A DNA stretch of 64,000 bases from Antedon mediterranea (taxonomy: Eukaryota; Animalia; Echinodermata). The stretch covers positions 5,756,201 to 5,820,200 of the forward strand of contig NC_092670.1 of NCBI RefSeq assembly GCF_964355755.1. Reading direction: 5' to 3'. Positions 3,280 to 59,921 of the stretch are shown piece by piece. Each line of letters starts with the position of its first letter. Positions within the stretch are counted from its first letter, which is position 1. The notes below the pieces were generated by a model. It made no database searches. It had not been told where the DNA came from and saw only the letters and a list, made by a program, of their open reading frames with translations. The position numbers and the translations under genes are program-made.

Positions 3280-3366
3280 ATAAATGTTATGTTGTAGGCT
3301 ATTGCCAATTCAAAAATAAACCTAAACCTAAAACCGAGACCAACATTATTCTTTCTTTCTCCTCCA

Positions 3367-3468: not shown

Positions 3469-3485
3469 GTGCCTTGCATATGTCA

Positions 3486-8000: not shown

Positions 8001-11000
8001 CTTTCGCAGGAGTTAAAAATATTTTAATTTTTTTGACGTCATCATGCCTAAAAATTTAAATCACGTGTGGCATTAATTTCATCTTTACAGTAAATTTTAA
8101 TCTGTTATAGCTCATAAGAATAAAATGTGATAATCACGATTAAAACTTTTTCTGGAAGCTATTGGATTGTAGATACGAAATTTTGTAAAAATGTTGCCAA
8201 TCGGATGTTGTGACGTCATCATATGGCCAGTTATATAAAAAAGGTCGTATTTTCATCTTTTGCGTCATAATTCATTACATTTAAAAGAGCGCGCATCAAT
8301 ATTTCACGTATTCAAATTTCTTCTACACGCTAATACGTTGTTGCTGAGATAATTTCCTTTCGGAATTGCTACCTTCGCGTTTCATTTTAAAACCGTCAAC
8401 ATGTTAAAAATTGCAATAAATAGCGGGTCCCGTAATTTCACCTATTCTACACTGTATGTGATATGGATACAGATTATACTTTGTATACTATATATGAATC
8501 TAAATAATAAAATTCAGCAATAACAACATATCATATTCTTCAGTTCAGGTCATAATGCCAACGTGAACACTTCCTTTTGTCCTCAACCTATCCCCTTAAT
8601 GTTAATGTTGCACCACTTGCGCGGCGGATAACCAAACTCGTCAAAGAGACGAGTTACATGTCTAGTCTGTATTCTTCTTATTTCTTTCCCATTTTTTTGT
8701 GAGTCACGTTTCTCTAAAATGTGTAAACATAACATTTTATAACTTTGACAACATGTGGGCATTTACGTGAAGTTGTGCATCTCCTATTTTGAATGACGTC
8801 TGAGTTGCGCAACGTGACTTGCGCGCGATTTTATGATTTTTAATGATTGATCATAGCTTAAAAACCAAGAGTAATTTTTTTTTTTACCCTTTATGAAAAT
8901 TTAAGTCATATCAAGGGCAAACTGTTAGTGCACTAAAAATGGCATGTTTTACAAAAAGTTACGCGTGGACGCGCATTTAAAATTTCAAAATGCGCAAAAT
9001 TAATTTCTAATCAACTTTCTACGCGTTTCATGTCATTTTAAGCATGTAAAAAATTCCCACGCGTGCGCACATTTTTACGTGTGCGGTGCGCACGTAGCAT
9101 TAAAAACATATTTTTTTCGAGTGATTTATGTTTTTCCAGCCTTTTATAGTAATTTTACCAACTTTTAAACACTTTCGACTTAAAGTTACGTCATACGAGC
9201 ACGTCGAATTGGACAATTTGCGCACGTTTTTGATGAAAAAGTACAAAAATTTGTCAAAATTATGCCTTTTTTTAAACAGTCGTAATTTCTAAACTACACG
9301 GTCAACTTTTTGTGGATGACATATTCCGGAAGTTGATGAGTTGTAGATATCGGATCATGTATTAATATGGCTAACCGGACATTTTAACGTCATCGTATGG
9401 CCACGCGAATATAAAATTGAGGATTTTTGTATCTTTCGTCATAGCTCATCACATTTAATAGAGCGCATCTCCACTTATCCATTTTCCATTTTCACCCCGA
9501 TTTTGATATTGTCTAGGTCAATCAACTATCTTTCGCATGAGTTAAAAATATTTTAATTATTATGACGTCATCATGCCTAAAAATTTAAATTACATGTGGC
9601 ATTAATTTCATCTTTACAGAAAATTTTAATCTGTTATAGCTCGTAAAAATAAAATGTGATAATCACGATTAAAACGTTTTCTGGAAGATATTGGATTGTA
9701 GATACAAAATCATGTAAACATTTGGCAAATCGGATGTTGTGACATCATCATATGGCCAGTTAAATAAAAAAAGTCGTATTTTCATATTTTGCATCATAGT
9801 TCATTACATTTAAAAGAGCACGCATTAATATTTTACGTATTAAAATTTCTTCTACACGTTAATATGTTGTTGCTGAGATAATTTCCTTCCGAAATTGCTA
9901 TATCAGTGTTTCATTTTCATACCGTCACCATGTTAAAAATTGGAATAAATGACGGGACCCGTAATTTCGCCTATCCTACACTGTATTAATATGTATACAG
10001 ATTATACTACGTATACTGTAAATAGTATATGACACAAAATATACAGCATTTAGCACTAACAACATATTATACTCTTCAGTTCATGTCAATATGCCATAAT
10101 CTTTTTCTGTGTCCAATGTATGACGTGCACGTGGCGTTTGTCGTGCGGATAACTAACTCGTCAAAGTGACGAGTTTCATGTCTAGTCTTTTTTTTTTTTT
10201 TCTGTATTATTAGTTATCCGCACTCAGCGGATAACTCCTTGTAACTGTCCTGTTTCATCATCTTTTTTTTAGTTATCCGCATTCAGCGGATAACTCCTTG
10301 TAACTGTCCTGGTTCTTTTTTTTCACATTATTCTTCGGTCTTTCTCTCTCACTTTTTGTGCAGAGCGTATCTCTAAAACGTGTTAACATAACATTTCATA
10401 ACTTTGTCGACATATGGGCATTCACGTGAAGTTGTGCACCTCCTATTTTTGAATGACGTCAGAGTTGCGCAACGTGACTTACGTGCGTTTTTATGAATTT
10501 CGCGTTTTTAACATAGTTCAAAAACCATTCAACAATTTAAATTGAAACTTAGCAAAAGTTTAATTTATATCTTGCGCTAACTGTATGTAGAAAAAAAATG
10601 GCATGTTTCACAGAAAGTTACGCGCGCACGCGCATTTAAAATTTGAAAATGCGAAAAATCAATTTCTAATCAACTTTCTATGCGTTTCATGTCATTTTAA
10701 GCATTTAAAAAATTCCCAAGCGCAAGCAATTTTTTACGCGCGCGCGCGCACGTAGCGCAAAAAAAAATATTTTTTCTCATGATTTATGTTTTTCCAGCCT
10801 TTTCTAGTAATTTTACCAATTTTTAAACAATTTCGACTTAAAATCATGTCATACGAGCACGTAGAATTTGATAATTTGCCCACGTTTTTGATGAAAAAGT
10901 TCAAAAATTCTTCAAAATTATGCCTTTTTTTAAACAGTCGTAGTTGCTAAACTAAACGGTGAAAGTTGTTTTTATTACATATTCTGGAAATTGATGAATT

Positions 11001-11737
11001 GTAGATATTGGATCATGCATTAATATGGCTAACCGGACATTGTGACGTCATCGTGGGGCCACGCGAATATAAAATATAGGATTTTTGTATCTTTCATCAT
11101 AACTCATCACATTTAATAGAGCGCATCTCCACTTATTTGTTTTCCATTTTCACCCCGATTTTTATATTATCTAGGTCAATCAACTATCTTTCACCTAAGT
11201 TAAACATATTTTAATTTTTATGACGTCATCATGTCTAAAAATGAAAATAACGTGGGTCATTTATTTTCATCTTTACAGTAAATTTCAATCTGTTATAGTT
11301 CGTCAGAATAGAACGTGATAATCATGATTAAAACGTTTTCTGGAAGCTATTAGATTGTAGATACGAATTCATGTAAACATTTTTCCAATCGGATGTTGTG
11401 ACGTCATCATATAGCCAGTTGAATAAAAAAAAGTCGTATTTTCATATTTTGCGTAATAGTTCATCACATTTAAAAGGGCGCGCATCTATATTTTACGTAC
11501 TCAAATTTTTTGTACACGTTAATATGTGGTTGCTGAGATAATGTCCTTCCGAAATTGATATCTTAGTGTTTCATTTTGATACCGTAGCCATGTTAAAAAT
11601 AAGAATAAACGTGGGGTCCCGTAATTTCACGTATTCTACACTGTATGTAACATGTATACAGATTAAATACCGTTTGCACTGTATACTATATGACACAAAA
11701 TTGACAGAATTCAGCACTAACATCATATGATATTCGT

Positions 11738-12706
11738 TAGTCTGGGTTCCAGACGGAGTTTTGTCTTAATATTAGTAAAAAGATAAATATTTTGGCACAT
11801 ATGGCGTTTCATACGTATACTACTTGAATTGGATACTCCGTCTGGGGAAACACGCACAAGTCACGTGGTTTGACACCAAGAATTCTTGGTGCATACGATT
11901 ATCCGGTTGACTAGTTTCAGCTGCATGCGATTGGCTACTCACTCGTACACTGTTTTAATATTCATATTTCAGAATTTCAAAGACTCAACAACTAAGATGA
12001 TGCGCATGCGCTATGTTACGTTTAGACAATGTGTACTTGGGTACATTTATGAAAGTTTCTGAAGGCTAGAAATTATTTTATATGCCTAGTAGTCTGGTAA
12101 ACATTTGATGGGATTTTTCTCAAGAACATGAAAACTCGTGATATGATAGGCTAGCTTCTCCGCAAAGCAAACATTGAATGGATCATTTATTACGCGGAGA
12201 TAATTTTGATCTAATTTCCACCCAGACCCTGTCCTGTTCTGTGTGGTGGTGTAGCCCTGTTGTTGTGTGCCGTCGGTGGTGGTATTTAGGCCTACTTTAT
12301 TGGCGTTTTATTTGGCAGGTCATACGTGCGAATTGAGTAGGACCTACGAAAGAGGCCTAGACCAAGGACTAAAAAATTAATAAACAAAACAACTTGGCAT
12401 TGCGATTTATATTTCAACAGTCTCGATCGTACATTCAGCACTGTACGTACTCGATCTTTTTCATTTTGAAACAAAATGATCATTGGTTGATTCGAAATCC
12501 ATATTTACATACCTCCCGCCCCATATAGCCAAATACGGTATGATAAACTACGTCATTCTTATCGGATGTTTGCGGTCTGCAAATCGATTTCTATACGTGT
12601 TTCACAAGTCTGTATTTTCAGACAAAAATCGCGGTCGAAATAAAAACAAATAAATAAAAAAAAATACATATATATATATATATAATACAGACTTGGGGCA
12701 AGTCTA
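11738..12706. mobile_element. 969-bp non-autonomous cut-and-paste-type DNA transposon (TAG...CTA ends, possibly Zisupton/KDZ-like) inside a type-B HINE
   Basis: Flanked by direct repeat GATATTCGT (11729-11737 and 12707-12715); the empty site catatgatattcgtaaattc is seen in sister copies (~15830, ~20645). Ends are TAGTCTGGGTTCCAGAC and CAGACTTGGGGCAAGTCTA, with internal IR ccagacggagt/actccgtctgg. Confidence 0.8.
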
Positions 12707-14373
12707 GATATTCGTAAATTCAGGTCATAATGCCATAATCTTTTTCCGTGTGCAAAATTCCAACGTATGACGTGCGCGTGTCGTTTGTCGTGCGGATAAC
12801 TAACTCGTCAAAGTGACGAGTTCAAATCTAGTTTTTTTTTCTGTATTCTTCTTTCTTTCTGTCATTTTTGTGCAGAGCATATCTCAAAAACGTGTAAAGT
12901 TAACATTTCATAACTTTGTCAACATATGGGCATTCACGTGAAGTTGTGCTTTTTTATTTTTGAATGACGTCAGATTTGCGCAACATGACTTACGCGCGTT
13001 TTAACGAATTTCGCGTATTTAACATAAATCAAAAACCATATAACAATTAAAATTGAAACTTAGCAAAAGTTTAATTTATATTCTGCGCTAACTGACTGTG
13101 GGAAAAAAATGGCATGTTTCACACGAAGTTACGCGCGCACGCACGTTTAAAATTGAAAAATGCGAAAAATCAATTTCTAATCAACTTTCTACGTGTTTCA
13201 TGTGATTTTGAGCATGTAAAAAATTCCCACTCGCGCGCATATTTTTACGCGCGTGGTGCGCACGTAGCGTTGAAAACTATTTTTTTCGCGTGATTTAGGT
13301 TTTTCCAGCCTTTTCTAGTAATTTTACCAACTTTTAAACGATTTCGACTTAAAATCACGTCATACGAGCCCGTAGAATTGGATAATTTATGTGCGTTTTT
13401 TATGAAAAAGTTCAAAAATTCATCAAAATTTGTCAAAATTATACCTTTTTTTAAACAGTTGTAGTTTCTAAACTAAACGGTAAAAGTTGTTTTTATTACG
13501 TATTCTGGAAGATGATGAGTTGTAGATATCGTATCATGCATCAATATGGCTAACCGGACATTATGACGTCATCGTATGGCCACTCGAATATAAAATATAG
13601 GGATTTTTTCTCTTTTGTCATAGCGCATCACATTTAATAGAGCGCATCTCCACTTATCCGTTTTCCATTTTCACCCCGATTTTGATATTGTCTAGGTCAA
13701 TCAACTATCCTTTGCATGAGTTAAAAATATTTTAATTTTTATGACGTCATCATGCCTAAAAATTTAAATTACGTGTGCCTTTAATTTCATCTTTACAGTA
13801 AATTTTAATCTGTTATAGCTCGTACGAATAAAATGTGATAATCACGATTAAAACGTTTTCTGGAAGCTATTGGATTGTAGATACAAAATCATGTAAAAAT
13901 TTTGCCATTTGGATGTTTTGACGTCATCATATGGCCAGTTAAATAAGAAAAGTCGTATTTTCATCTTTTGCGTCATAATTCATTACATTTAAAAGAGCGT
14001 GCACCAATATTTTACGTATTTAAATTTCTTCTACACATTAATATGTTGTTGCCGAGATAATTTCCTTCCGAAATTGCAACCTTATTGTTTCATTTTGATA
14101 CCGTCTCCATGTTAAAAATTGAAATAAATGGCGGGTCCCGTAATTTCACCTATTCTACACTGTATATAATATATATATACAGATTATACTGTTTGTACTA
14201 TATACTATATGACACAAAATTGACCGAATTCAGCACTAACAACATATCATATTCATCAGTTCAGGTCATAATGCCATAATCTTTTTCTGTGTGGAATATT
14301 CCAATGTATGACGTGCACGTGGCGTTTGTCGTGCGGATAACTAACTCGTCAAAGTGACGAGTTACATGTCTAG

Positions 14374-15958
14374 TTAGTTATCCGCATTCAGCGGATAACT
14401 CCTTGTAACTGTCCTGGTTCTTTTTTTTCACATTATTCTTCGGTCTTTCTCTCTCACTTTTTGTGCAGAGCGTATCTCTAAAACGTGTTAACATAACATT
14501 TCATAACTTTGTCGACATATGGGCATTCACGTGAAGTTGTGCACCTCCTATTTTTGAATGACGTCAGAGTTGCGCAACGTGACTTACGTGCGTTTTTATG
14601 AATTTCGCGTTTTTAACATAGATCAAAAACCATTCAACAATTTAAATTGAAACTTAGCAAAAGTTTAATTTATATCTTGCGCTAACTGTATGTAGAAAAA
14701 AAATGGCATGTTACACAGAAAGTTACGCGCGCACGCGCATTTAAAATTTGAAAATGCGAAAAATCAATTTCTAATCAACTTTCTATGCGTTTCATGTCAT
14801 TTTAAGCATTTAAAAAATTCCCAAGCGCAAGCAATTTTTTACGCGCGCGCGCGCACGTAGCGCAAAAAAAAATATTTTTTCTCATGATTTATGTTTTTCC
14901 AGCCTTTTCTAGTAATTTTACCAATTTTTAAACAATTTCGACTTAAAATCATGTCATACGAGCACGTAGAATTTGATAATTTGCCCACGTTTTTGATGAA
15001 AAAGTTCAAAAATTCTTCAAAATTATGCCTTTTTTTAAACAGTCGTAGTTGCTAAACTAAACGGTGAAAGTTGTTTTTATTACATATTCTGGAAATTGAT
15101 GAATTGTAGATATTGGATCATGCATTAATATGGCTAACCGGACATTGTGACGTCATCGTGGGGCCACGCGAATATAAAATATAGGATTTTTGTATCTTTC
15201 ATCATAACTCATCACATTTAATAGAGCGCATCTCCACTTATTTGTTTTCCATTTTCACCCCGATTTTTATATTATCTAGGTCAATCAACTATCTTTCACC
15301 TAAGTTAAACATATTTTAATTTTTATGACGTCATCATGTCTAAAAATGAAAATAACGTGGGTCATTTATTTTCATCTTTACAGTAAATTTCAATCTGTTA
15401 TAGTTCGTCAGAATAGAACGTGATAATCATGATTAAAACGTTTTCTGGAAGCTATTAGATTGTAGATACGAATTCATGTAAACATTTTTCCAATCGGATG
15501 TTGTGACGTCATCATATAGCCAGTTGAATAAAAAAAAGTCGTATTTTCATATTTTGCGTAATAGTTCATCACATTTAAAAGGGCGCGCATCTATATTTTA
15601 CGTACTCAAATTTTTTGTACACGTTAATATGTGGTTGCTGAGATAATGTCCTTCCGAAATTGCTATCTTAGTGTTTCATTTTGATACCGTAGCCATGTTA
15701 AAAATAAGAATAAACGTGGGGTCCCGTAATTTCACGTATTCTACACTGTATGTAACATGTATACAGATTAAATACCGTTTGCACTGTATACTATATGACA
15801 CAAAATTGACAGAATTCAGCACTAACATCATATGATATTCGTAAATTCAGGTCATAATGCCATAATCTTTTTCTGTGTGCAAAATTCCAACGTATGACGT
15901 GCGCGTGTCGTTTGTCGTGCGGATAACTAACTCGTCAAAGTGACGAGTTCAAATCTAG
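14374..15958 (+). mobile_element. Uninterrupted type-B element (head TTAGTTATCCGCATTCAGCGGATAACT, tail ...GAGTTCAAATCTAG)
   Basis: Head and tail contiguous; 13-bp subTIRs TTAGTTATCCGCA / TGCGGATAACTAA. Confidence 0.85.
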
Positions 15959-17517
15959 TTCTTCTTTCTTTCTGTCATTTTTGTGCAGAGCGTATCTCTA
16001 AAACTTGTAAAGTTAACATTTTATAACTTTGTCAACATATGGGCAATCACGTGAAGTTGTGCTTTCCTATATTTGGATGACGTCAGAGTTGCGCAACATG
16101 ACTTATGCGCGTTTTTATGAATTTCGCGTATTTAACATAACTCGAAAACCATATAACAATTTAACTTGAAACTTAGCAAAAGTTTAATTTATATTGTGCG
16201 CTAATTTTTTGTACACTAAAAATGGTATGTTATACACGAAGTTACGCGCGCACGTGCATTTAAAATTTTAAAATGCGAAAAAACAATTTCTAATCAACTT
16301 TCTACGCATTTCATGTCATTTTAAGGATGTCAAAAATTCCCACGCGCCCGCAAATTTTTACATGCGCGGTGCGCATGTAGCGTTAAAAACATATTTTCTT
16401 TGCGTGATTTATGTTTTTCTGGCCTTTTTTTAGTAATTTTACTAACTTTTAAACAATTTTGACTTAAAATCACGTCATATAAGCACGTCGAATTAAATAA
16501 TTTGCGCGCGTTTTTGATGAAAAAGTTCAAAAATTCAGCAAAATTATGCCTTTTTTTAAATAGTCGTAGTTTCTAAACTAAACGGTGAAAGTTATTTTTA
16601 TTACATATTCTGGAAGTTGATGAATTGTAGATATCGAATAATGTATTAATATTGCTAACCGGACCTTGTGACGTCGTCGTATGGCCACGCGAATATAAAA
16701 TTTAGGATTTTTGTGTCTTTCGTAATAGGTCATAACATTTAATAGAGCGCATCTCTACTTATCCATTTTCCATTTTCACCCTGATTTTGATATTGTCTAG
16801 GTCAATCGACTATCTTTCGCATGAGTTAAAAATATTTTAATTTTTTTGACGTCATCATGCCTAAAAATTTAAATTACGTGTGGCATTAATTTCATCTTTA
16901 CAGTAAATTTTAATCTGTTATAGCTCGTAAGAATAAAATGTGATAATCACGATTAAAACATTTTCTGGAAGCTATTGGATTGTAGATACAAAATCATGTG
17001 AACATTTTGCCAATCGGATGTTGTGACGTCATCATATGGCCAGTTAAATAAAAAAAGTCGTATTTTCATCTTTTGCGTCATAATTCATTACATTTAAAAG
17101 AGCGCGCATTAATATTTCACGTATTTAAATTTCTTCTACACGTTAATATGTTGTTGCTGAGATAATTTCCTTCCAAAATTTCTATCTTCGCATTTCATTT
17201 TAAAACCGTGAACATGTCAAAAATTGCAATAAATAGCGGGTCCCGTAATTTCACCTATTCTACACTGTATGTGATATGGATACAGATTATACTGTGTATA
17301 CTATATATGAATCAAATTAATAGAATTCAGCAATAACAACATATCATATTCTTCAGTTCAGGTCATAATGCCATAATCTTTTTTCGTGTGCAATATTCCA
17401 ACGTATGACGTGCACGTGGCGTTTGTCGTGCGGATAACTAACTCGTCAAAGTGACGAGTTTCATGTCTAGTTGGTTATCCGCAACGAAGTTGCAGGATAA
17501 CCTCTTGTGATTGTACG

Positions 17518-17548
<31 letters not shown>

Positions 17549-20500
17549 TGGTTATCCGCAACGAAGTTGCAGGATAACCTCTTGTGATTGTACGAAATCA
17601 TCATCATCATCAACTTTTTATTTTTAGTTATCCGCATTCAGCGGATAACTCCTTGTAACTGTCCTGGTTCTTTTTTAGTTATCCGCATTTAGCGGATAAC
17701 TCCTTGTAACTGTCCTGTGTCTTTTTTGGCATTATTCTTCGATCTTTCTCCCTCACTTTTTGTGCAGAGCGTATCTCTAAAATGGGTAAACATAACATTT
17801 CATAACTTTGTCAACATATGGGCATTTACGTGAAGTTGTGCACCTCCTATTTTTGAATGACGTCATAGTTACGCAACGTGACTTACGCGTGATTTTATGA
17901 TTTTTTTAAATTGATCATAGATTTAAAACCAAGTGTAATTTTGTTTTGACACTTTGTGAAAATTTAAGTCATATCAAGGGCAAACTTTTTGTGCACAAAA
18001 AATGGCATGTTTTACAAGAAGTTACGCGCGCACGCGCGTTTAAAATTTTAAAATGCGAAAAACCAATTTCTAATCAACTTTCTACGCGTTTCTTGTCATT
18101 TTGAGCATGTCAAAAATTCCCACGCATGCGCAAATTTTTACGCGCGCGGTGCCCACGTAGCGTTAAAAACATACTTTTTCCACGTGATTTATGTTTTTTC
18201 AGCCTTTTCTAGTAATTTTACCAACTTTTAAACAATTTAGACTTAAAATTACGTCATACGAGGACGCCGAATTGGATAATTTGTGCGCGTTTTTGATGAA
18301 AAAGTTCAAAAATTCGTCAAAATCATGCCCTTTTTTAAACAGTCGTAGTTTCTAAACTAAACGGTGAAAGTTATTTTTATTACATATTCTGGAAGTTGAT
18401 GAGTTGTAGATATCGGTTCATGTTTTAATATGGCGAACCGGACATTGTGACGTCATCGTATGGCCACGCGAATATAAAATATAGGATTTTTGTATCTTTC
18501 ATCATAGCTCATCACATTTAATAGAGCGCATTTCCACTTATCTGTTTTTCATTTTTATCCCGATTTTTATATTTTCTAGGTCAATCAACTATCAATCGCA
18601 TGAGTTAAAAATATTTTAATTTTTATGACGTTATGATGTCTAAAAATGTAAATAACCTGGGTCACTTATTTTCATCTTTACAGTAAATTTCAATCTGTTA
18701 TAGCTCGTCAGAATAAAACGTGATAATCATGATTAAAACATTTTGAGGAAGCTATTGGATTGCAGATACGAATTCATGTAAACATTTTGCCAATTAGATG
18801 TTGTGACGTCATCATATGGCCAGTTAAATAAAAAAAGTCGTATTTTGATCTTTTGCATCATAGTTCATTACATTTAAAAGAGCGCGCATCAATATTTAAC
18901 ATATTCAAATTTCTTAAACACGTTAATATGTTGTTGCTGAGATAATTTCCTTCCGAAATTGCTACCTTAGTTTTTCATTTTGAAACCGTCAACATTAAAA
19001 ATTGGAATAAATAGCGGGTCCCGTAATTTCACCTATTCTACACTGTATGTGATATGTATACAGATTATACTGTGTATGACACAAAATAACAGAATTCAGC
19101 AATAACAACATATCATATTCTTCAGTTCAGGTCATAATGCCATAATTTTTCTGTGTGCAATATTCCAACGTATGACGTGCACGTGACGTTTGTCGTGCGG
19201 ATAACTAACTCGTCAAAGTGACGAGTTTCATGTCTAGTTTTCACATTATTCTTCGGTCTTTCTCTCTCACTTTTTGTGCAGAGCGTATCTCTAAAACGTG
19301 TTAACATAACATTTCATAACTTTGTCGACATATGGGCATTCACGTGAAGTTGTGCACCTCCTATTTTTGAATGACGTCAGAGTTGCGCAACGTAACTTAC
19401 GTGCGTTTTTATGAATTTCGCGTTTTTAACATAGATCAAAAACCATTCAACAATTTAAATTGAAACTTAGCAAAAGTTTAATTTATATCTTGCGCTAACT
19501 GTATGTAGAAAAAAAATGGCATGTTTCACAGAAAGTTACGCGCGCACGCGCATTTAAAATTTGAAAATGCGAAAAATCAATTTCTAATCAACTTTCTATG
19601 CGTTTCATGTCATTTTAAGCATTTAAAAAATTCCCAAGCGCGAGCAATTTTTTTACGCGCGCGCGCGCACGTAGCGCACAAAAAATATTTTTTCTCATGA
19701 TTTATGTTTTTCCAGCCTTTTCTAGTAATTTTACCAATTTTTAAACAATTTCGACTTAAAATCATGTCATACGAGCACGTAGAATTTGATAATTTGCCCA
19801 CGTTTTTGATGAAAAAGTTCAAAAATTCTTCAAAATTATGCCTTTTTTTAAACAGTCGTAGTTCCTAAACTAAACGGTGAAAGTTGTTTTTATTAGATAT
19901 TCTGGAAATTGATGAATTGTAGATATTTGATCATGCATTAATATGGCTAACCGGACATTGTGACGTCATCGTGGGGCCATGCGAATATAAAATATAGGAT
20001 TTTTGTATCTTTCATCATAGCTCATCACATTTAATAGAGCGCATCTCCACTTATCTGTTTTCAATTTTCACCCCGATTTTTATATTATCTAGATCAATCA
20101 ACTATCTTTCACTTAAGTTAAACATATTTTAATTTTTATGACGTCATCATGTCTAAAAATTTAAATAACGTGGTTCATTTATTTTCATCTTTACAGTAAA
20201 TTTCAATCTGTTATAGTTCGTCAGAATAGAACGTGATAATCATGATTAAAACGTTTTCTGGAAGCTATTGGATTGTAGATACGAATTCATGTAAACATTT
20301 TCCCAATCGGATGTTGTGACGTCATCATATGGCCAGTTGAATAAAAAAAAGTCGTATTTTCATATTTTGCGTAATAGTTCATCACATTTAAAAGTGCGCG
20401 CATCTATATTTTACGTACTCAAATTTCTTGTACACGTTAATATGTGGTTGCTGAGATAATGTCCTTCCGAAATTGCTATCTAATTGTTTCATTTTGATAC

Positions 20501-23500: not shown

Positions 23501-23519
23501 TTCTTCTACACGCTAATAC

Positions 23520-47183: not shown

Positions 47184-50100
47184 GATATTCGTAAATTCAG
47201 GTCATAATGCCATAATCTTTTTCCGTGTGCAAAATTCCAACGTATGACGTGCGCGTGTCGTTTGTCGTGCGGATAACTAACTCGTCAAAGTGACGAGTTC
47301 AAATCTAGTTATTCTTCTTCTTTCTTTCTGTATGATTTTTGTGTAACGCTTTTCTCTAAAACTCGCAAACATAACATTTCGGTAACTATGTTAACATTTT
47401 GACATTTATGTAACGTCGTCAAGCGAAGCTTTTCATGATGTTTACAATTGCGCAACGTGACGTACGCGCGATTTAACGATTTTCTCGTATCTAACATATG
47501 TCGAAAACCAAATAACATTTTAAAGTGAAACTTTGCAAAAGTTTAATTTATATCATGCGCTAACTTTCTGTTGAAAAAAAATTGCGTGTTTTACACAAAG
47601 TTACGCGCGCACGCGTATTTAAAATTTCAAAATGCGCAAAATTAATTTCTAATCAACTTTCTACGCGTTTCATGTCGTTTTAAGCATGTCAAAAATTCCC
47701 ACGCGTGCGCACATTTTTACGTGTGCGGTGAGCACGTAGCATTGAAAACGTATTTTTTTCGCGTGATTTATGTTTTTCCAGCCTTTTCTAGCAATTTTAC
47801 CAAATTTTAAACAATTTCGACTTAAAGATACGTCATACGAGCACGTCAAATTGGACAATTTGCGCGCGTTTTTTATGAAAAGGTTAAAAAATTCGTTTAA
47901 AATATGCCTTTTTTTAAACAGTCGTAATTTCTAAACTAGACGGTCAACTTTTTGTGGATGACATATTCTGGAAGTAGATGAGTTGTAGATATCGGATCAG
48001 GTAGTAATATGGCTAACCGGACATTGTGACGTCATCGTATGGCCACGCGAATATAAAATTTAGGATTTTTGTATCTTTCGTCATAACTCATCACATTGAA
48101 TAGAGCGCATCTCCACTTATTCGTTTTCCATTTTCACCCTGATTTTGATATTGTCTAGGTCAATCAACTATCTTTCGCATGAGTTAAAAATATTTTAATT
48201 TTTTTGACGTCATCATGCCTAAAAATTTAAATCACGTGTGGCATCAATTTCATCTTTACAGTAAATTTTAATCTGTTATAGCTCGTAAGAATAAAATGTG
48301 ATAATCACGATTAAAACTTTTTCTGGAAGCTATTGGATTGTAGATACGAAATTATGTAAAAATGTTGCCAATCGGATGTTGTGACGTCATCATATGGCCA
48401 GTTAAATAAAAAAGGTCGTATTTTCATCTTTTGCGTCATAATTCATTACATTTAAAAGAGCGCGCATCAATATTTCACGTATTCAAATTTCTTCTACACG
48501 CTAATACGTTGTTGCTGATATAATTTCCTTTCGGAATTGCTACCTTCGCGTTTTATTTTAAAACCGTCAACATGTTAAAAATTGCAATAAATAGCAGGTC
48601 CCGTAATTGGTTATCCGCAACGAAGTTGCAGGATAACCTCTTGTGATTGTACGAAATCATCATCAACATCAACTTTTTGGTTATCCGCAACGAAGTTGCA
48701 GGATAACCTCTTGTGATTGTACGAAATCATCAACATCAACTTTTTATTGGTTATCCGCAACGAAGTTGCAGGATAACCTCTTGTGATTGTACGAAATCAT
48801 CAACATCAACTTTTTATTTGTCTTCTTTCTTTCTGTATGATTTTTGTGGATCGCTTTTCTCTAAAACTTGCAAACATAACATTTTGTAACTTTCTCAACA
48901 TATCGTCATGCACATGAAGATGTGCAGCGAAGCTTTTCATGATGTTTACAATTGCGCAACGTGACTTACGCGCGATTTAACGATTTTGTCGTATTTAACA
49001 TAGCTCGACAACCAAATAACATTTCAACTTGAAACTTTGCAAAAGTTTAATTTATATCATGCGATAACTTTCTGTTGAAAAAAAATTGCGTGTTTTAAAC
49101 AAAGTTACGCGCGCACGCGCATTTAAAATTTCAAAATGCGCAATATTAATTTATAATCAACTTTCTACGCGATTCATGTCGTTTTAAGCATGTCAAAAAT
49201 TCCCACGCGTGCGCACATTTTTACGTGTGCGGTGCGCACGTAGCATTGAAAACGTATTTTTTTCGCGTGATTTATATTTTTCCAGCCTTTTCTAGTAATT
49301 TTACCAAATTTTAAACAATTTCGACTTAAAGATACGTCATACGAGCACGTCGAATTGGACAATTTGCGCGCGTTTTTTATGAAAAGGTTAAAAAATTTGT
49401 TTAAAATATGCCTTTTTTTAAACAGTCGTAATTTCTAAACTAGACGGTCAACTTTTTGTGGATGGCATATTCTGGAAGTAGATGAGTTGTAGATATCGGA
49501 TCAGGTATTAATATGGCTAACCGGACATTGTGACGTCATCGTATGGCCACGCGAATATAAAATTTAGGATTTTTGTACCTTTCGTCATAGCTCATCACAT
49601 TGAATAGAGCGCATCTCCACTTATCCGTTTTCCATTTTCACCCCGATTTTGATATTGTCTAGGTCAATCAAGTATCTTTCGCAGGAGTTAAAAATATTTT
49701 AATTTTTTTGACGTCATCATGCCTAAAATTTTAAATCACGTGTGGCATTAATTTCATCTTTACAGTAAATTTTAATCTGTTATAGCTCATAAGAATAAAA
49801 TGTGATAATCACGATTAAAACTTTTTCTGGAAGCTATTGGATTGTAGATACGAAATTATGTAAAAATGTTGCCAATCGGATGTTGTGACGTCATCATATG
49901 GCCAGTTATATAAAAAAGGTCGCATTTTCATCTTTTGCGTCATAATTCATTACATTTAAAAGAGCGCGCATCAATATTTCACGTATTCAAATTTCTTCTA
50001 CACGCTAATACGTTGTTGCTGAGATAATTTCCTTTCGGAATTGCTACCTTCGCGTTTCATTTTAAAACCGTCAACATGTTAAAAATTGCAATAAATAGCG

Positions 50101-51935
50101 GGTCCCGTAATTTCACCTATTCTACACTGTATGTGATATGGATACAGATTATACTGTGTATACTATATATGAATTTAAATAATAAAATTCAGCAATAACA
50201 ACATATCATATTCTTCAGTTCAGGTCATAATGCCAACGTGAACACTTCCTTTTGTCCTTAACCTATCCCCTTAATGTTAATGTTGCACCACTTGCGCGGC
50301 GGATAACCAAACTCGTCAAAGTGACGAGTTACATGTCTAGTTGGTTATCCGCAACGAAGTTGCAGGATAACCTCTTGTGATTGTACGAAATCATCAACAT
50401 CAACTTTTTATTTTTCTTCTTTCTTTCTGTATGATTTTTGTGTAACGCTTTTCTCTGAAACTTGCAAACATAACATTTTGTTAACTATGTTAACATTTTG
50501 ACATTTATGTAACGTCGTCAAGCGAAGCTTTTCATGATGTTTACAATTGCGCAACGTGACGTACGCGCGATTTAACGATTTTCTCGTATTTAACATATGT
50601 CGAAAACCAAATAACATTTTAAAGTGAAACTTTGCAAAAGTTTAATTTATATCATGCGCTAACTTTCTGTTGAAAAAAAATTGCGTGTTTTACACAAAGT
50701 TACGCGCGCACGCGCATTTAAAATTTCAAAATGCGCGAAATTAATTTATAATCAACTTTCTACGTGTTTCATGTCGTTTTAAGCATGTCAAAAATTCCCA
50801 CGCGTGCGCACATTTTTACGTGTGCGGTGCGCACGTAGCATTGAAAACGTATTTTTTTCGCGTGATTTATGTTTTTCCAGCCTTTTCATGTAATTTTACC
50901 AAATTTTTAACAATTTCGACTTAAGGATACGTCATACGAGCACGTCGAATTGGACAATTTGCGCGCGTTTTTTATGAAAAGGTTAAAAAATTTGTTTAAA
51001 ATATGCCTTTTTTTAAACAGTCGTAATTTCTAAACTAGAAGGTCAACTTTTTGTGGATGGCATATTCTGGAAGTAGATGAGTTGTAGATATCGGATCAGG
51101 TATTAATATGGCTAACCGGACATTGTGACGTCATCGTATGGCCACGCGAATATAAAATTTAGGATTTTTGTATCTTTCGTCATAGCTCATCACATTGAAT
51201 AGAGCGCATCTCCACTTATCCGTTTTCCATTTTCACCCCGATTTTGATATTGTCTAGGTCAATCAACTATCTTTCGCATGAGTGAAAAATATTTTAATTT
51301 TTATGACGTCATCATGCCTAAAAATTGAAATCACGTGTGGCATCAATTTCATCTTTACAGTAAATTTTAATCTGTTATAGCTCGTAAGAATAAAATGTGA
51401 TAATCACGATTAAAACTTTTTCTGGAAGCTATTGGATTGTAGATACGAAATTATGTTAAAATGTTGCCAATCGGATGTTGTGACGTCATCATATGGCCAG
51501 TTAAATAAAAAAGGTCGTATTTTCATCTTTTGCGTCATAATTCATTACATTTAAAAGAGCGCACATCAATATTTCACGTATTCAAATTTCTTCTACACGC
51601 TAATACGTTGTTGCTGAGATAATTTCCTTTCGGAATTGCTACCTTCGCGTTTCATTTTAAAACCGTCAACATGTTAAAAATTGCAATAAATAGCAGGTCC
51701 CGTAATTTCACCTATTCTACACTGTATGTGATATGGATACAGATTATACTGTGTATACTATATATGAATTTAAATAATAAAATTCAGCAATAACAACATA
51801 TCATATTCTTCAGTTCAGGTCATAATGCCAACGTGAACACTTCCTTTTGTCCTCAACCTATCCCCTTAATGTTAATGTTGCACCACTTGCGCTGCGGATA
51901 ACCAAACTCGTCAAAGTGACGAGTTACATGTCTAG

Positions 51936-53554
51936 TTGGTTATCCGCCTCAAGCGGATAACCTTTGTTATTGTAGTGTTACTTTTTTTTTTTATTATTCT
52001 TCTTTCTTTCTCCGATTTTGTGTACGCGTTTTCTCTTGAACGTGTTAACATAACATTTTGTAACTTGGTCAACATATAGACAATTAACTGAAGATGTACT
52101 GCGAAGCTTTTTGACAATGTCAGATCCGCGTAGCGTAAGTTACGCGCGATTTTCTGAAAATCTTAAATCGGTCATAACTTCGAAACCGATAAATATTTTT
52201 TAACGAAATTTTCAGCCACGTTTTCTTCACATCAATGGCTAACTTTTTCGCTCTTCAGCAAATTTTTGAACACTAGAAAGTCTGCGCGTAAACTGCGTTT
52301 GAAATTTTAAAATGCTCCTAATTTGTGCACGCTGTTTCTCTGTAACGCGTTAACATAACATTTTGTAACTTGTTCAACATATAGACATTTTACTGAAGTT
52401 GTCCAGCCAAGCTTTTTGACGATGTCAGAGCCGCGTAGCGTAAGTTACGCGTGATTTTCTGAAAATCTTAAATTGGTTATAACTTCGAAACAAATGAATA
52501 TTTTTTAACGTCATTTTCAGCCACGTTTGCTTCACATCAATAGTTAACTTTTTTAACGCTATCGCAATTTGTAACATTAGAAAGTGCGCGCGTAAATGGC
52601 GTTTGGAATTTTAAAATGCTTCAAATCAATTTCTGATTAAATTAGAGCACGATTCAGGTCATTTTAAGCGTTTAAAAAATTGCCACTGGTGCGCACATTT
52701 TTACGCGCGCACGGCGCAGGGAACAGGTATGAGCATTTCTTTTACACGATTTGTGTTTTTAAATCTTCTGTTAACAATTTTACGTTATTTTATTCACTTT
52801 TCAACTTGAAATGGCGTTCTACGAGCACGTTAAACATGACAGGTTGCGCACGAAAACGTCAACAAATTGTGAAAATGTTCCAAAATATGTCTACTTTTAA
52901 AAATGACACAGTTCATCAGAATGCAAGGTTACCCCCATTTTTTATTTTAATTTCTTGCAGTGTATGAATCATAGGTCTGATTTATTATAGTGTTGAATGC
53001 TAAAACGTGTTTGATGGCTACATTATTTGCATATTAAATATAATTTTTGAAATATTTATCATCAAACAAACATAAACTTATTCAAAGAGCAAAACAATAA
53101 ACATAACATTTATCTTTTTTCTTTACATGTTAATATATAAAACTTGAAAGTAGGTACTTTCATAAAATATCAGCGTTTAAAATTTTTGAAGATTTCATCA
53201 TAGTAAAATTTATGATTTAAGTTTGATATGTAATAATCAACTTGCATCGAGGGGGTTCACGACATACCGAATGAACGAGGACTCTTTCTTCGGATTTTCG
53301 TCAGCAGGTGGTCATATGGCTCGATGTGTAATGCAACCGACTTTGGTATCAGAGGTACCGGGTTCGAGTCCCGTCACGGGAAAACAATTAATTAAAAGGG
53401 TTTAGTTGGTTATTACACTGAGAGGGCAGTTTTAATTTTGAATAGCCTACTTTTTTTGGAAAAGTCATAACTTGGAAGTACTTGAATACGCAAGATACGC
53501 TTTGTTGCTGGCGGATAACCAAACTCGTCCTCAAGTGACGAGTTTAAGTTCTAG
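51936..53554 (+). mobile_element. Divergent HINE family (type H) sharing only termini and weak body similarity
   Basis: Head TTGGTTATCCGCCTCAAGCGGATAACC; tail GGCGGATAACCAAACTCGTCCTCAAGTGACGAGTTTAAGTTCTAG; perfect 13-bp subTIRs; internal ~305-bp degenerate tandem repeat (~52020-52625). Confidence 0.85.
53310..53382 (+). pseudogene. tRNA-derived sequence (tRNA pseudogene or SINE head) inside the type-H element
   Basis: A-box-like TGGCTCGATGTG, B-box GGTTCGAGTCC, T-arm ccgggttcgagtcccg; acceptor stem does not pair well. Confidence 0.55.
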
Positions 53555-56500
53555 TTTGTCTTCTTTCTTTCTGTATGATTTTTGTGGATCGCTTTTCTCT
53601 AAAACTTGCAAACATAACATTTTGTAACTTTCTCAACATATCGTCATGCACATGAAGATGTGCAGCGAAGCTTTTCATGATGTTTACAATTGCGCAACGT
53701 GACTTACGCGCGATTTAACGATTTTGTCGTATTTAACATAGCTCGACAACCAAATAACATTTCAACTTGAAACTTTGCAAAAGTTTAATTTATATCATGC
53801 GCTAACTTTCTGTTGAAAAAAAATTGCGTGTTTTACACAAAGTTACGCGCGCACGCGCATTTAAAATTTCAAAATGCGCAAAATTAATTTATAATCAACT
53901 TTCTACGCGATTCATGTCGTTTTAAGCATGTCAAAAATTCCCACGCGTGCGCACATTTTTACGTGTGCGGTGCGCACGTAGCATTGAAAACGTATTTTTT
54001 TCGCGTGATTTATATTTTTCCAGCCTTTTCTAGTAATTTTACCAAATTTTAAACAATTTCGACTTAAAGATACGTCATACGAGCACGTCGAATTGGACAA
54101 TTTGCGCGCGTTTTTTATGAAAAGGTTAAAAAATTTGTTTAAAATATGCCTTTTTTTAAACAGTCGTAATTTCTAAACTAGACGGTCAACTTTTTGTGGA
54201 TGGCATATTCTGGAAGTAAATGAGTTGTAGATATCGGATCAGGTATTAATATGGCTAACCGGACATTGTGACGTCATCGTATGGCCACGCGAATATAAAA
54301 TTTAGGATTTTTGTACCTTTCGTCATAGCTCATCACATTGAATAGAGCGCATCTCCACTTATCCGTTTTCCATTTTCACCCCGATTTTGATATTGTCTAG
54401 GTCAATCAAGTATCTTTCGCAGGAGTTAAAAATATTTTAATTTTTTTGACGTCATCATGCCTAAAAATTTAAATCACGTGTGGCATTAATTTCATCTTTA
54501 CAGTAAATTTTAATCTGTTATAGCTCATAAGAATAAAATGTGATAATCACGATTAAAACTTTTTCTGGAAGCTATTGGATTGTAGATACGAAATTATGTA
54601 AAAATGTTGCCAATCGGATGTTGTGACGTCATCATATGGCCAGTTATATAAAAAAGGTCGTATTTTCATCTTTTGCGTCATAATTCATTACATTTAAAAG
54701 AGCGCGCATCAATATTTCACGTATTCAAATTTTTTCTACACGCTAATACGTTGTTGCTGAGATAATTTCCTTTCGGAATTGCTACCTTCGCGTTTCATTT
54801 TAAAACCGTCAACATGTTAAAAATTGCAATAAATAGCGGGTCCCGTAATTTCACCTATTCTACACTGTATGTGATATGGATACAGATTATACTGTGTATA
54901 CTATATATGAATTTAAATAATAAAATTCAGCAATAACAACATATCATATTCTTCAGTTCAGGTCATAATGCCAACGTGAACACTTCCTTTTGTCCTCAAC
55001 CTATCCCCTTAATGTTAATGTTGCACCACTTGCGCGGCGGATAACCAAACTCGTCAAAGTGACGAGTTACATGTCTAGTTATTTCTCTTCTTTCTTTCTG
55101 TATGATTTTTGTGGAACGCTTTTCTCGAAAACTTGCAAACATAAAATTTTGTAACTTTCTCAACATATCGTCATGCACATGAAGATGTGCAGCGAAGCTT
55201 TTCATGATGTTTACAATTGCGCAACGTGACCTACGCGCGATTTAACGATTTTGTCGTATTTAACATAGCTCGACAACCAAATAACATTTCAACTTGAAAC
55301 TTTGCAAAAGTTTAATTTATATCATGCGCTAACTTTCTGTTGAAAAAAAATTGCGTGTTTTACATAAAGTTACGCGCGCACGCGCATATAAAATTTCAAA
55401 ATGCGCAAAATTAATTTATAATCAACTTTCTACGCGTTTCATGTCGTTTTAAGCATGTCACAAATTCCCACGCGTGCGCACATTTTTACGTGTGCGGTGC
55501 GCACGTAGCATTGAAAACGTATTTTTTTCGCGTGATTTATGTTGTTTCAGCTTTTTCAAGTAATTTTACCAAATTTTAAACAATTTCGACTTAAAGATAC
55601 GTCATACGAGCACGTCGAATTGGACAATTGGCGCGCGTTTTTTATGAAAAGGTTAAAAAATTCGTTTAAAATATGCCTTTTTTTAAACAGTCGTAATTTC
55701 TAAACTAGACGGTCAACTTTTTGTGGATGGCATATTCTGGAAGTAGATGAGTTGTAGATATCGAATCAGGTAGTAATATGGCTAACTGAACATTGTGACG
55801 TCATCGTATGGCCACACGAATATAAAATTTAGGATTTTTGTATCTTTCGTCATAGCTCATCACATTGAATAGAGCGCATCTCCACTTATCCGTTTTCCAT
55901 TTTCACCCCGATTTTGATATTGTCTAGGTCAATCAAGTATCTTTCGCATGAGTTAAAAATATTTTAATTTTTTTGACGTCATCATGCCTAAAAATTTAAA
56001 TCACGTGTGGCATTAATTTCATCTTTACATTAAATTTTAATCTGTTATAGCTCGTAAGAATAAAATGTGATAATCACGATTAAAACTTTTTCTGGAAGCT
56101 ATTGGATTGTAGATACGAAATTATGTAAAAATGTTGCCAATCGGATGTTGTGACGTCATCATATGGCTAGTTAAACAAAAAAGGTCGTATTTTCATCTTT
56201 TGCGTCATAATTCATTACATTTAAAAGAGTGCGCATCAATATTTCACGTATTCAAATTTCTTCTACACGCTAATACGTTGTTGCTGAGAAAATTTCCTTT
56301 CGGAATTGCTACCTTCGCGTTTCATTTTAAAACCGTCAACATGTTAAAAATTGCAATAAACAGCGGATCCCGTAATTTCACCTATTCTACACTGTATGTG
56401 ATATGGATACAGATACTGTGTATACTATATATGAATTTAAATAATAAAATTCAGCAATAACAACATATCATATTCTTCAGTTCAGGTCATAATGCCAACG

Positions 56501-58203
56501 TGAACACTTCCTTTTGTCCTCAACCTATCCTCTTAATGTTAATGTTGCACCACTTGCGCGGCGGATAACCAAACTCGTCAAAGTGACGAGTTACATGTCT
56601 AGTTTCACCTATTCTACACTGTATGTCACTGTATGTGATATGGATACAGAATATACTGTGTATACTATATATGAATTTAAATAATAAAATTCAGCAATAA
56701 CAACATATCATATTCTTCAGTTCAGATCATAATGCCAACGTGAACACTTCCTTTTGTCCTCAACCTATCCCCTTAATGTTAATGTTGCACCACTTGCGCG
56801 GCGGATAACCAAACTCGTCAAAGTGACGAGTTACATGTCTAGTTTCTCTTCTTTCTTTCTGTATGATTTTTGTGGAACGCTTTTCTCGAAAACTTGCAAA
56901 CATAACATTTTGTAACTTTCTCAAAATATCGTCATGCACATGAAGATGTGCAGCGAAGCTTTTCATGATGTTTACAATTGCGCAACGTGACTTACGCGCG
57001 ATTTAACAATTTTGTCGTATTTAACATAGCTCGACAACCAAATAACATTTCAACTTGAAACTTTGCAAAAGTTTAATTTATATCATGCGCTAACTTTCTG
57101 TTGAAAAAAAATTGCGTGTTTTACACAAAGTTACGCGCGCACGCGCATATAAAATTTCAAAATGCGCAAAATTAATTTATAATCAACTTTCTACGCGTTT
57201 CATGTCGTTTTAAGCATGTCAAAAATTCCCACGCGTGCGCACATTTTTACGTGTGCGGTGCGCACGTAGCATTGAAAACGTATTTTTTTCGCGTGATTTA
57301 TGTTGTTCCAGCTTTTTCAAGTAATTTTACCAAATTTTAAACAATTTCGACTTAAAGATACGTCATACGAGCACGTCGAATTGGACAATTGGCGCGCGTT
57401 TTTTATGAAAAGGTTAAAAAATTCGTTTAAAATATGCTTTTTTTTAAACAGTCGTAATTTCTAAACTAGACGGTCAACTTTTTGTGGATGGCATATTCTG
57501 GAAGTAGATGAGTTGTAGATATCGGATCAGGTAGTAATATGGCTAACCGGACATTGTGACGTCATCGTATGGCCACACGAATATAAAATTTAGGATTTTT
57601 GTATCTTTCGTCATAGCTCATCACATTGAATAGAGCGCATCTCCACTTATCCGTTTTCCATTTTCACCCCGATTTTGATATTGTCTAGGTCAATCAAGTA
57701 TCTTTCGCATGAGTTAAAATATTTTAATTTTTTTACGTCATCATGCCTAAAACTTTAAATCACGTGTGGCATTAATTTCATCTTTACAGTAAATTTTAAT
57801 CTGTTATAGCTCGTAAGAATAAAATGTGATAATCACGATTAAAACTTTTTCTGGAAGCTATTGGATTGTAGATACGAAATTATGTAAAAATGTTGCCAAT
57901 CGGATGTTGTGACGTCATCATATGGCCAGTTAAATAAAAAAGGTCGTATTTTCATCTTTTGCGTCATAATTCATTACATTTAAAAGAGCGCGCATCAATA
58001 TTTCACGTATTCAAATTTCTTCTACACGCTAATACGTTGTTGCTGAGATAATTTCCTTTCGGAATTGCTACCTTCGCGTTTCATTTTAAAACCGTCAACA
58101 TGTTAAAAATTGCAATAAATAGCGGGTCCCGTAATTTCACCTATTCTACACTGTATGTGATATGGATACAGATACTGTGTATACTATATATGAATTTAAA
58201 TAA

Positions 58204-59763
58204 CTAGATGGCACGCTCGCTTCGCTCGCGTACCATCTAGGTCGTGCCCACAGATGGTTCTCGAATACACAGTATTTCCAGCGAGAAAAAAATGGAGATT
58301 TCAAATGTACGTATACCGCAGGACTATAATACATTGTCGTTTACAGAAACGAATAAATATACACAATGATTTATGTAGTCAACCAAAATTAGCACCCTGG
58401 GAATTACTTCCGAGAGAGAAACAAAATGAGTCAAATTTTTTTATTTGGACTCATTTAAACAAACCCAATTTGTGTTTTGTATGTAACATTAAGGGTTGAG
58501 GGATGGGGGAAGAAGATAGGTACAAAGAGGAAACATTTTAAAATATATTCTTATCCACTCAGTAACGAAATATTGTTTTTAATGTTTTATAGGCCTATAA
58601 ATAATATACCACTAAATACAGTAAAACATTTACGATTTAATACGGTACTTTGTTAAAACTCTCACTGTCATAGTCGATTGAAATAGTAAAGTACATGTAA
58701 CGATACACCACTACGACGTTTATATATTTTTAAATTATTAATTAATACAAACGTTGAGAAGCAACTGTCAGTATTAACGTTTATTTATTTGTATATTATA
58801 TGTTTATAATCTAACAGTAGGGCCTACCCACACTCACAGTAATAAAGTTTATTTGTATATATTTTTATATTACATCTAACAGTACCAACACTCACAGTAA
58901 GAAATTTGCGATTCAAATTGCGATCAAAAGTGGTTAATACCATAACAGTATTGTACAGCATTGCAATACTATTTATGTTTATTCTCCAAGGGGGCCCATA
59001 AATCTAAATCTATACCTCTATGGTTAAACCAAATAATTTGGAATGTTTATTTGTATATTATATGTTTATAATCTAACAGTAGGGCCTACCCACACTCACA
59101 GTAATAAAGTTTATTTGTATATATTTTTATATTACATCTAACAGTACCAACACTCACAGTAAGAAATTTGCGATTCAAATTGCGATCAAAAGTGGTTAAT
59201 ACCTTAACAGTATTGTACAGCATTGCAATACTATTTATGTTTATTCTCCAAGGGGGCCCATAAATCTAAATCTATACCTGTATGGTTAAACCAAATAATT
59301 TGGAATGTTCCATTCATCACAAATCAATACATTTGTAAAAACGTATATTAAATGTATCAAAATAGTATTTTTTAAAGAAAATCGGCCTGTCTTCAACATT
59401 ATGATGCTGTACTCGAACTGTTCAATCGGTTTTCAGCTATTAAAAACAATTATCGTAGGAGGAGATAGGAAAATGCGAAGCCTCCTCGCATTTTTTTGGC
59501 GGGTATTTTTCAAGATGGACATCCATTAGACAGTGTATACCACGATCGGAAAACACCCCTATTTGGGGCAAATCGTTGAACCTAAATTCGTTTTAATCGT
59601 CAATAACTAATTATCTAACTTAATTTAATTAGTAAACAGGGTTACATCAGGTGGTTAAAATCAGTACCGAAAGTACGAACCAACTTTACATACCATCGAG
59701 TAAAAATTCTAGAAGTAAGGCGCGATTTACCGAATTTTGCCCTTACGTAAATTTATATATAGA
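58204..59763 (-). mobile_element. Canonical non-autonomous Helitron (5' TC ... hairpin-CTAG 3'), 1560 bp, inserted antisense into the last HINE
   Basis: Host aatttaaataa|taaaattcagc is split with no TSD (A|T). Minus strand starts TCTATATATAAAT and ends CTAGATGGTACGCGAGCGAAGCGAGCGTGCCATCTAG. Confidence 0.85.
58784..59307. repeat. Two near-identical 262-bp tandem copies inside the Helitron
   Basis: ctaacagtagggcctacccacactcacag at 58811 and 59073. Confidence 0.85.
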
Positions 59764-59921
59764 TAAAATTCAGCAATAACAACATATCATATTCTTCAGT
59801 TCAGGTCATAATGCCAACGTGAACACTTCCTTTTGTCCTCAACCTATCCTCTTAATGTTAATGTTGCACCACTTGCGCGGCGGATAACCAAACTCGTCAA
59901 AGTGACGAGTTACATGTCTAG

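Follow-up and report, generated by a model that had tools for sequence, protein, structure and literature searches.

How can a single locus come to hold 33 copies of one transposon, all in the same orientation? The question is raised by a 64,000-nucleotide stretch of DNA from the echinoderm Antedon mediterranea (NCBI RefSeq assembly GCF_964355755.1, contig NC_092670.1, positions 5,756,201 to 5,820,200 of the forward strand), which we call the window. Motif searches identified 33 CTAG 3' ends and 25 5' heads of one family of approximately 1.6-kb elements at window positions 5429-59921. Every member lies on the plus strand, and the same searches found neither heads nor ends on the minus strand of the window. 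Self-comparison likewise showed a single repeat family spanning about 5,400-59,900, on the plus strand only. A preliminary description had called this array a "satellite" and read it as a last-in-first-out stack of rolling-circle elements, built by about 30 separate insertions aimed at resident 5' ends. The label is loose for an array that occupies a single 54-kb locus. The start proposed there, 10186, lies about 4.7 kb inside the array, which begins at about 5429.

We classified the family by the structure of its non-coding copies alone, which makes it a likely member of the non-autonomous HLE2 elements. Perfect subterminal inverted repeats (subTIRs) of 12-14 bp occur in all five intact elements examined, one at base 1 and the other 28-32 bases before the 3' end. 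Nested in the 5' subTIR is a hairpin (z -7.0 and -5.7 in the two elements folded), followed by an (ATC)n or T run and then by a C/T tract. A second hairpin, with a 9-bp stem, follows the 3' subTIR (z -2.8 and -2.9, again in both elements folded). No stop-to-stop frame of 120 amino acids or more occurs in the window. Subterminal repeats of 11-15 bp, a nested 5' inverted repeat with a microsatellite, a 3' stem-loop, no coding capacity and no target-site duplication are all traits of HINE and DINE-1 elements, whose plan is outlined in the excerpts of PMC4067079 and PMC11417382. All 25 heads start with TT and carry subTIRs, in place of the 5' TC without terminal inverted repeats that marks canonical Helitrons (HLE1). 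The 3' end does have the HLE1 form, a hairpin and CTRR followed by T, with CTAG and then T at 33 of 33 ends. Exact scans for the tail pattern in viral contigs and metagenome contigs gave no match.

Of the 31 bodies that we aligned, 18 are of one type, A, and lie 0.3-4.6% apart; the other types are 11-17% from A. This alignment omits a divergent element (51936-53554) and two short 3' pieces (5429-5610 and 56603-56842). Every body also carries an internal diverged repeat of approximately 145 bp, at element positions ~730-880 and ~1090-1230, with about 70% identity between the two units.

Order of the nested elements

Fifteen elements run contiguously from head to CTAG, ten are split but retain a head, and eight bodies are headless in the window. 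The preliminary description had an earlier element resuming after each CTAG. This is the case at 23 of the 33 ends; nine lead straight into a new head and one into unrelated flank. The stacks of heads that it listed (for example 17471, 17548, 17624 and 17675) all stand at exactly those coordinates, and the four pairs of strings that it quoted from either side of a cut match the window letter for letter. Among the 23 resumed bodies, 14 rejoin cleanly with a left piece, one does so with three edits in a poly-T run (12832), one is mismatched with its stack partner (20772), one is an orphan (32173) and six have no left piece in the window.

We passed the segments through a stack machine and scored 16 joins, each over 28 bases, against the 15 intact copies. 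Under strict last-in-first-out order, with nothing set aside, 10 of the 16 joins came within one edit of an intact copy (edit sum 20), and random choice among the open elements equalled this in 57 of 1,500 runs (3.8%). Setting aside the orphan body at 32173-33683 raised the count to 14 of 16 and lowered the edit sum to 8, whereas 200,000 shuffles averaged 53 and never fell below 25; only 1 of 1,500 random-choice runs matched it. The choice of this body was made post hoc, as the best of 24 single set-asides (sum 8 versus 15 for the next best). First-in-first-out order was rejected, with 4-6 of 16 joins and edit sums of 46-47.

Two hosts illustrate the order. The clearest case is an A-type host at 28958-36818, which was cut at its positions 62, 68 and 74 and lies in four pieces (28958-29019, 30578-30583, 33684-33689 and 35294-36818). 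Its guests are the elements at 29020-30577, 30584-32172 and 33690-35293. Each piece rejoins the next at zero edits, and the rebuilt host is of the variant seen in the intact copy at 24271, with a body distance of 1.0% between the two. The longest case, an A-type host that opens at 17471, resumes at 36819 and again at 40018 and closes at 41542 (pieces 17471-17547, 36819-36830 and 40018-41542), had been proposed in the preliminary description and is confirmed, with 14 elements inside. Head type also agrees with body type in nine of the ten split elements that have a head.

Excising inner segments was the check that the preliminary description had set beforehand, and most of the flanks do rejoin into intact copies. 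Its last-in-first-out order stands for the joins counted above and fails at two others, and heads do not pair off fully with ends, 25 against 33. The nest is a real and unusually clean structure, and we are highly confident that the array arose by nested insertion.

Insertion sites and rival explanations

Rebuilding the hosts exposes the sites into which the guests went. We considered 15 target sites, excluding the mismatched join 17623/20772. Fourteen of these fully seen sites fall in the C/T tract, at host positions 51-89 where a head is present, and 22 of the 23 resumed bodies start in the tract. It is the element's only 25-base window with more than 84% pyrimidine; in one copy this insertion hot spot (33761-33786), around element position 72, reaches 96% C/T across 25 bases. 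The one site outside the tract (48606/56603) is itself pyrimidine-rich (0.80), and at all 15 sites the next 15 bases are at least 80% pyrimidine. The cut falls at A|T in nine cases and at T|T in six, in T-rich targets. HINEs share the T-rich target, with T|T as the insertion site; a T|T rule would hold here only if the element's own terminal T were reassigned. No base is duplicated at any of the nine A|T sites. The six T|T sites fall within runs of T, and taken alone they say nothing about duplication; five of them rejoin within one edit.

How well does the tract itself predict these sites? Counting candidate A|T or T|T sites over rebuilt elements with a head and fewer than 1,700 bases, we found that the tract window holds 4.9% of all of them, 34% of those with 80% pyrimidine and 98% (95 of 97) of those with 93%. 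At this last threshold the minus strand has two. Two A-type hosts with different (ATC)n lengths were cut at the same two junctions, which lie at positions 62 and 74 in one and 77 and 89 in the other. Because the junctions stay constant while the length of (ATC)n varies, the cut tracks sequence and not a fixed distance. Judging from its sequence, the tract alone can explain both the position of the insertions and their same-strand bias, with no need for homing to a 5' end. The first proposal, of insertions directed specifically at resident 5' ends, is not established; the sites follow a tract that contains nearly all of the strongest candidates.

We lean toward a model in which the landing site is self-made: a rolling-circle transposase likely prefers the polypyrimidine tract that the element carries, and the nest would feed itself. 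An autonomous RepHel partner would act in trans, linking the base that precedes the cut to the 5' T of the donor, and the T that follows the cut to the donor's CTAG. Helitrons are established to transfer a single strand without duplication, to join head to tail precisely and to read through the 3' end (excerpts of PMC4778049 and PMC5876387), and a preference for T-rich targets has been reported for HINEs (in the part of PMC4067079 that treats them). The strand asymmetry of the tract would set the orientation of the guest. As a target it would be far better than ordinary C/T-rich DNA, probably since the 5' hairpin and subTIR, at which the enzyme would bind, come immediately before it. Each copy would deliver a new tract in the same orientation, so that the nest would grow inward from its 5' ends, perhaps in a single brief burst fed by many distinct donors. 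By a modest preference we also extend the model to the whole genome. The family would then be a self-targeting transposon, most of whose new copies enter older ones on the same strand, and its satellite-like arrays would grow by insertion alone, spare host genes and record the order of their own assembly.

The nest seems young. Private changes number 4 in 1,239 bases in the likely outermost body and none in the host of 14 elements. Formation of the nest appears to have taken no more than about 0.3% divergence, starting from many donors that already differed, and gene conversion could make the nest look younger than its true age. The family is also abundant. In contigs of runs X7-X10, from one sample of one study that may be the source of the assembly, it is thousands of times deeper than rare single contigs. 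Summed depth in X10 is about 1-3.4 million over most bins of one intact element, compared to 250-500 for single rare contigs; these values are not a copy number. The contigs are short and the head region was skipped as repeat in the read-contig comparison, which thus bears on abundance and not on junctions.

Abundance and a general taste for T-rich DNA would not suffice to build such a nest. We used a branching model that assumes a 300-Mb genome. At 5,000-10,000 copies and 1-3 acceptable sites per kb, it predicts 1e-13 to 1e-47 nests of 33 copies. The expectation comes close to 1 only if about 78% or more of insertions hit existing copies, as in the run with 20,000 copies and 0.3 sites per kb. 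By this calculation, a nest of 33 copies is out of reach for a generic T-rich preference: either the locus is special, or ordinary C/T-rich DNA is a far poorer target than the tract behind the hairpin.

Several points weigh against the self-made landing site. The figure of 95 of 97 is partly circular, as the pattern was derived from in-tract sites, and at the 80% threshold that all sites reach, the tract holds only about a third of the candidates. To the right of the outermost element, the flank is not rich in pyrimidines. Strong sites in the flanks went unused (23 in 7.5 kb), as did long tracts in non-family DNA (two in 10.6 kb). Nine exact tail-to-head abutments are not obviously expected from a tract preference, and two joins, at 20772 and 32173, break the stack. 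There is no age gradient: across 18 bodies, depth correlates neither with how far a body lies from the A consensus (rho 0.03, p 0.90) nor with its private changes (rho 0.07, p 0.78), the depths of headless elements being assigned on the assumption that they nest. The preliminary description had proposed to test whether inner copies are closer to consensus; here the lack of a gradient is uninformative and not a refutation. Finally, copy number and genome size in the branching model are rough, and the evidence comes from one locus, chosen for being striking.

Some of these points suit a target that is the 5' end itself. A transposase bound at or nicking a resident 5' end could capture incoming copies; the displaced strand behind the hairpin would be the target, the tract would only fix the exact cut, and the CTAG-TT abutments would reflect circle-closure chemistry between two molecules. 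Such homing accords with the placement of all sites but one 51-89 bases from a 5' end, with the unused generic tracts in the flanks and with the nine abutments, which link different subtypes; precise head-to-tail joining is normal for Helitrons (PMC4778049, in excerpt). The cuts nevertheless follow the tract sequence when (ATC)n changes length. Homing also requires multiple hits on one host to come strictly 3' to 5', which would make the B-type element at 44762 older than 24 elements, including its near twin at 10269. A fast burst could produce that order, but the tract model does not call for it, and we consider homing doubtful if worth serious attention. We think it improbable that the locus is merely a sink, in which only an ordinary T-rich preference acts, chromatin, local re-insertion from cis donors or a lack of selection accounts for the accumulation, and the tract is the best local T-rich site. 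Near-identical copies do recur in the nest (the B-type element with an insert occurs twice, and three related A copies are 0.3-1.0% apart), and Helitrons have been reported to insert near Helitrons (Yang and Bennetzen 2009, as cited in the review PMC12477314, excerpt). The 7.5 kb of flank with its strong sites, however, holds no young insertion of the family, and consecutive A bodies are no more alike than shuffled ones (p 0.24). Helraiser, from a different Helitron group, showed no local hopping in 701 re-insertions (PMC4778049, same excerpt).

Tandem amplification, by concatemers, read-through or unequal crossover, would make the stacked heads amplified 5' fragments. It has a precedent in plant Helitrons, in arrays that combine several 5' ends with a single 3' end (Xiong 2016, cited in the part of the review PMC12628747 available), and recombination or read-through did occur to some extent, as the orphan at 32173, a chimera at 41616 and a duplication at 23852 show. 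The stacked heads, however, differ in subtype, and the rest of each follows farther along, in inverse order. Satellite repeats would have neighbors that are most alike or a regular higher-order period; here adjacent bodies are at a distance of 0.091 versus 0.100 when shuffled (p 0.12), and the nearest relative is the neighbor for 4 of 31 bodies. The preliminary description had named greater likeness of neighbors as grounds for abandoning its account of separate same-strand insertions, which this result and the rejoining test uphold. All nine abutments link bodies at least 2.9% apart, which a single replicating circle would not yield. The B-type twins at 44762 and 10269, with two differences in 1,240 bases, must be separate insertions because their flanks differ at the exact element ends. 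On the same observation, we rejected segmental duplication as the source of the twins. As the main process, amplification is largely refuted by the rejoining test, and we hold it very improbable. Still harder to credit is an assembly artefact in which a high-copy repeat was collapsed or shuffled. The family is very abundant in reads, but an assembler cannot yield base-exact rejoining in reverse order over 24 kb, and the bodies hold private changes.

Layout of the nest and its flanks

All features of the nest, a set of 33 non-autonomous Helentron-like elements at 5429-59921, are on the plus strand. Its left edge (5291-5610) consists of a 79-bp mid-body fragment (5291-5369) and a headless 182-bp 3' remnant (5429-5610), likely a deletion scar. 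Three headless bodies follow at 5611-10185 (5611-7138, 7139-8665 and 8666-10185), each beginning in the pyrimidine tract. Seven of the eight headless bodies are those that a stack would close last, and their heads would sit together at this edge, which retains only the mid-body scrap and the 3' remnant. On the simplest reading, a single deletion likely removed them. Besides this loss of the outermost head stack, later change to the nest would comprise the loss of one head, a single head/body mismatch, a chimera and a 3' duplication.

Next comes a C-type host without a head (10186-17470), whose pieces 10186-10209 and 15959-17470 rejoin at zero edits. Inside it, a C-type element at 10210-14373 was cut at host position 59; its pieces (10210-10268 and 12832-14373) are those that meet in the poly-T run. 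They enclose the first B-type twin (10269-12831), which contains a foreign insert of 970 bp (11737-12706) between the two units of an 8-bp duplication. The second twin (44762-47308) has the same insert at the same place (46214-47183, 99.9% identical) and different flanks. As an insert-free B copy is only 0.3% distant, the insertion is very recent, and the element took the insert with it. The insert-free copy, at 14374-15958, is intact, with a 13-bp subTIR, a 5' hairpin of z -7.0, a 3' hairpin and the ends TT...CTAG.

Within the 24-kb host at 17471-41542, the A-type head at 17548-17623 has as its stack partner an unrelated, divergent body with a B/C-type tail (20772-22285), an anomaly that spans 17548-22285. 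The B-type element at 17624-20771 was cut at position 51 by an intact B-like one (17675-19237) and rejoins at zero edits. Two A elements have shortened heads: that at 22286-24188, in which about 330 bp of the 3' end are duplicated (23852-24188), and the intact one at 27396-28957. Between them, the A element at 24189-27395 was cut at position 82 by an intact A copy (24271-25865). The orphan at 32173-33683 is a C-type body without a head that begins at the usual cut site; its head may have been lost by slippage between adjacent near-identical heads, or the body may stem from a nested donor that was read through, as has been suggested for maize (excerpt of PMC3288121). The A element at 36831-40017 was cut at position 76 by an intact C-type one (36907-38495).

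To the right of this host, the A element at 41543-44753 was cut at position 73 by the chimera (41616-43226), which is C-type to about 42845 and then A-type. An A-type host without a head occupies 44754-56842 (44754-44761, 47309-48606 and 56603-56842); it encloses the second B-type twin and carries the sole out-of-tract site. At that site lies a three-deep stack (48607-56602), in which 48607-48676 plus 55079-56602 surround 48677-48746 plus 53555-55078, and these surround the elements at 48747-50340, 50341-51935 and 51936-53554. The last is about 65-73% identical to other members and shares their subTIR, ends and landing site; it has an internal duplication of approximately 310 bp and a different 3' half. 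The likely outermost element, at 56843-59921, lacks a head. Its body holds a canonical-looking Helitron1 (A|TC ... hairpin CTAG|T) at 58204-59763 on the minus strand, with an internal 262-bp tandem duplication. Opposite in orientation and outside the tract, this insertion contrasts with the nesting family.

The right end of the array cuts a short dispersed repeat that occurs twice in opposite orientation, at 59922-60023 and 61686-61807. The first of these, the 3' part of the repeat, is 91% identical to the copy at 61686-61790 on the minus strand. For the 5' part of this repeat, nothing left of the array matches well (at best four mismatches in 17, at 5085). Bases past the cut loosely resemble the nesting element's own 5' end. 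No tRNA gene was found in the repeat, and "SINE-like" is an impression only. Just left of the array, at 3340-4600, is an old relative of the family, about 70% identical, whose C/T tract near 3345 has no young insertion. Further left, short GC-richer blocks between AG and GT at 2000-3240 (about 2003-2197, 2457-2520 and 3117) may be exons of a host gene, and positions 1-440, rich in short repeats of AT/TAG, resemble an imperfect inverted repeat.

Comparison with known systems

Self-insertion as such is familiar from retroelements. Zepp and DIRS-1 prefer earlier copies of themselves and form same-orientation nests by unrelated chemistry; our literature search gave no relevant paper on them.

The closest relatives by structure are DINE-1/HINE non-autonomous Helentrons (HLE2), described in the available parts of Thomas et al. 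2014 (PMC4067079) and the HELIANO paper (PMC11417382). They share 12-14-bp subTIRs, a nested 5' inverted repeat, a short microsatellite, a 3' stem-loop, the lack of coding sequence and of duplication, and T-rich targets. The Antedon family differs in its exact 5' TT and 3' CTAG ends, in the predominance of A|T over T|T sites and in a subTIR that starts at base 1, and those parts do not describe deep self-nesting. The proto-Helentron of Phytophthora (same excerpts) has the 5' TT, 3' CTAG and A|T insertion without duplication. It is autonomous and approximately 14 kb long, with an inverted repeat far inside the 5' end, whereas the Antedon family has the canonical HLE2 geometry.

Nested Helitrons are known from maize (Dong et al. 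2011, PMC3288121, in excerpt), where Helitrons within Helitrons leave several 5' or 3' ends (17.6% and 28.7% of helA). Re-mobilization of nested units, described in the same excerpt, could explain the orphan body at 32173. The maize nests have two or three levels, decayed inner ends and, as far as the excerpt goes, no fixed insertion window, whereas the nest in Antedon has 33 copies, intact ends and one hot spot. Tandem transposons that arise by double insertion (McGurk and Barbash 2018, PMC5932611) and the abutting Helitrons of bats (PMC4778049), both as excerpted, likewise show repeated use of a preferred site yielding head-to-tail neighbors in a burst. In double insertion the site lies in host DNA and is regenerated by duplication, and dimers expand by unequal exchange; here the site is borne by the element and growth is by insertion only. 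The Helitrons of Paramecium that target telomere repeats (PMC13085455, in excerpt) also combine a strand-asymmetric target with a single orientation, but their target is a host telomeric repeat. Shuffled Helitron loci in oyster and 5'-amplified arrays are in print as well (cited in the part of PMC12628747 available), and the excerpts of PMC11934779, PMC12001565 and PMC13286980 contain nothing on self-nesting.

Our search of the literature, which covered subscription journals thinly and excluded supplements, found no Helitron-like self-nest that is about 30 deep, strand-locked, position-specific and placed on an element-borne tract. To our knowledge, nothing is known of target choice in HLE2 elements or Helentrons beyond "T-rich, TT". 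The 15 empty sites rebuilt from this one locus point to a definite, element-borne, strand-asymmetric target that can be tested directly, and a sequence-directed insertion preference without duplication would be of interest for Helitron vectors. If the rule holds genome-wide, there would be a further way from transposon to long repeat array, free of concatemers and unequal exchange alike, and rolling-circle elements would offer a case of self-targeting as a strategy of low harm. Nests may then be hidden among the arrays annotated as Helitron tandem repeats or multi-terminus Helitrons. Helitron nesting, multiple termini, insertion near other Helitrons and sequence-targeted Helitrons in one orientation are all known already; what appears new in the Antedon nest is its depth and its position specificity.

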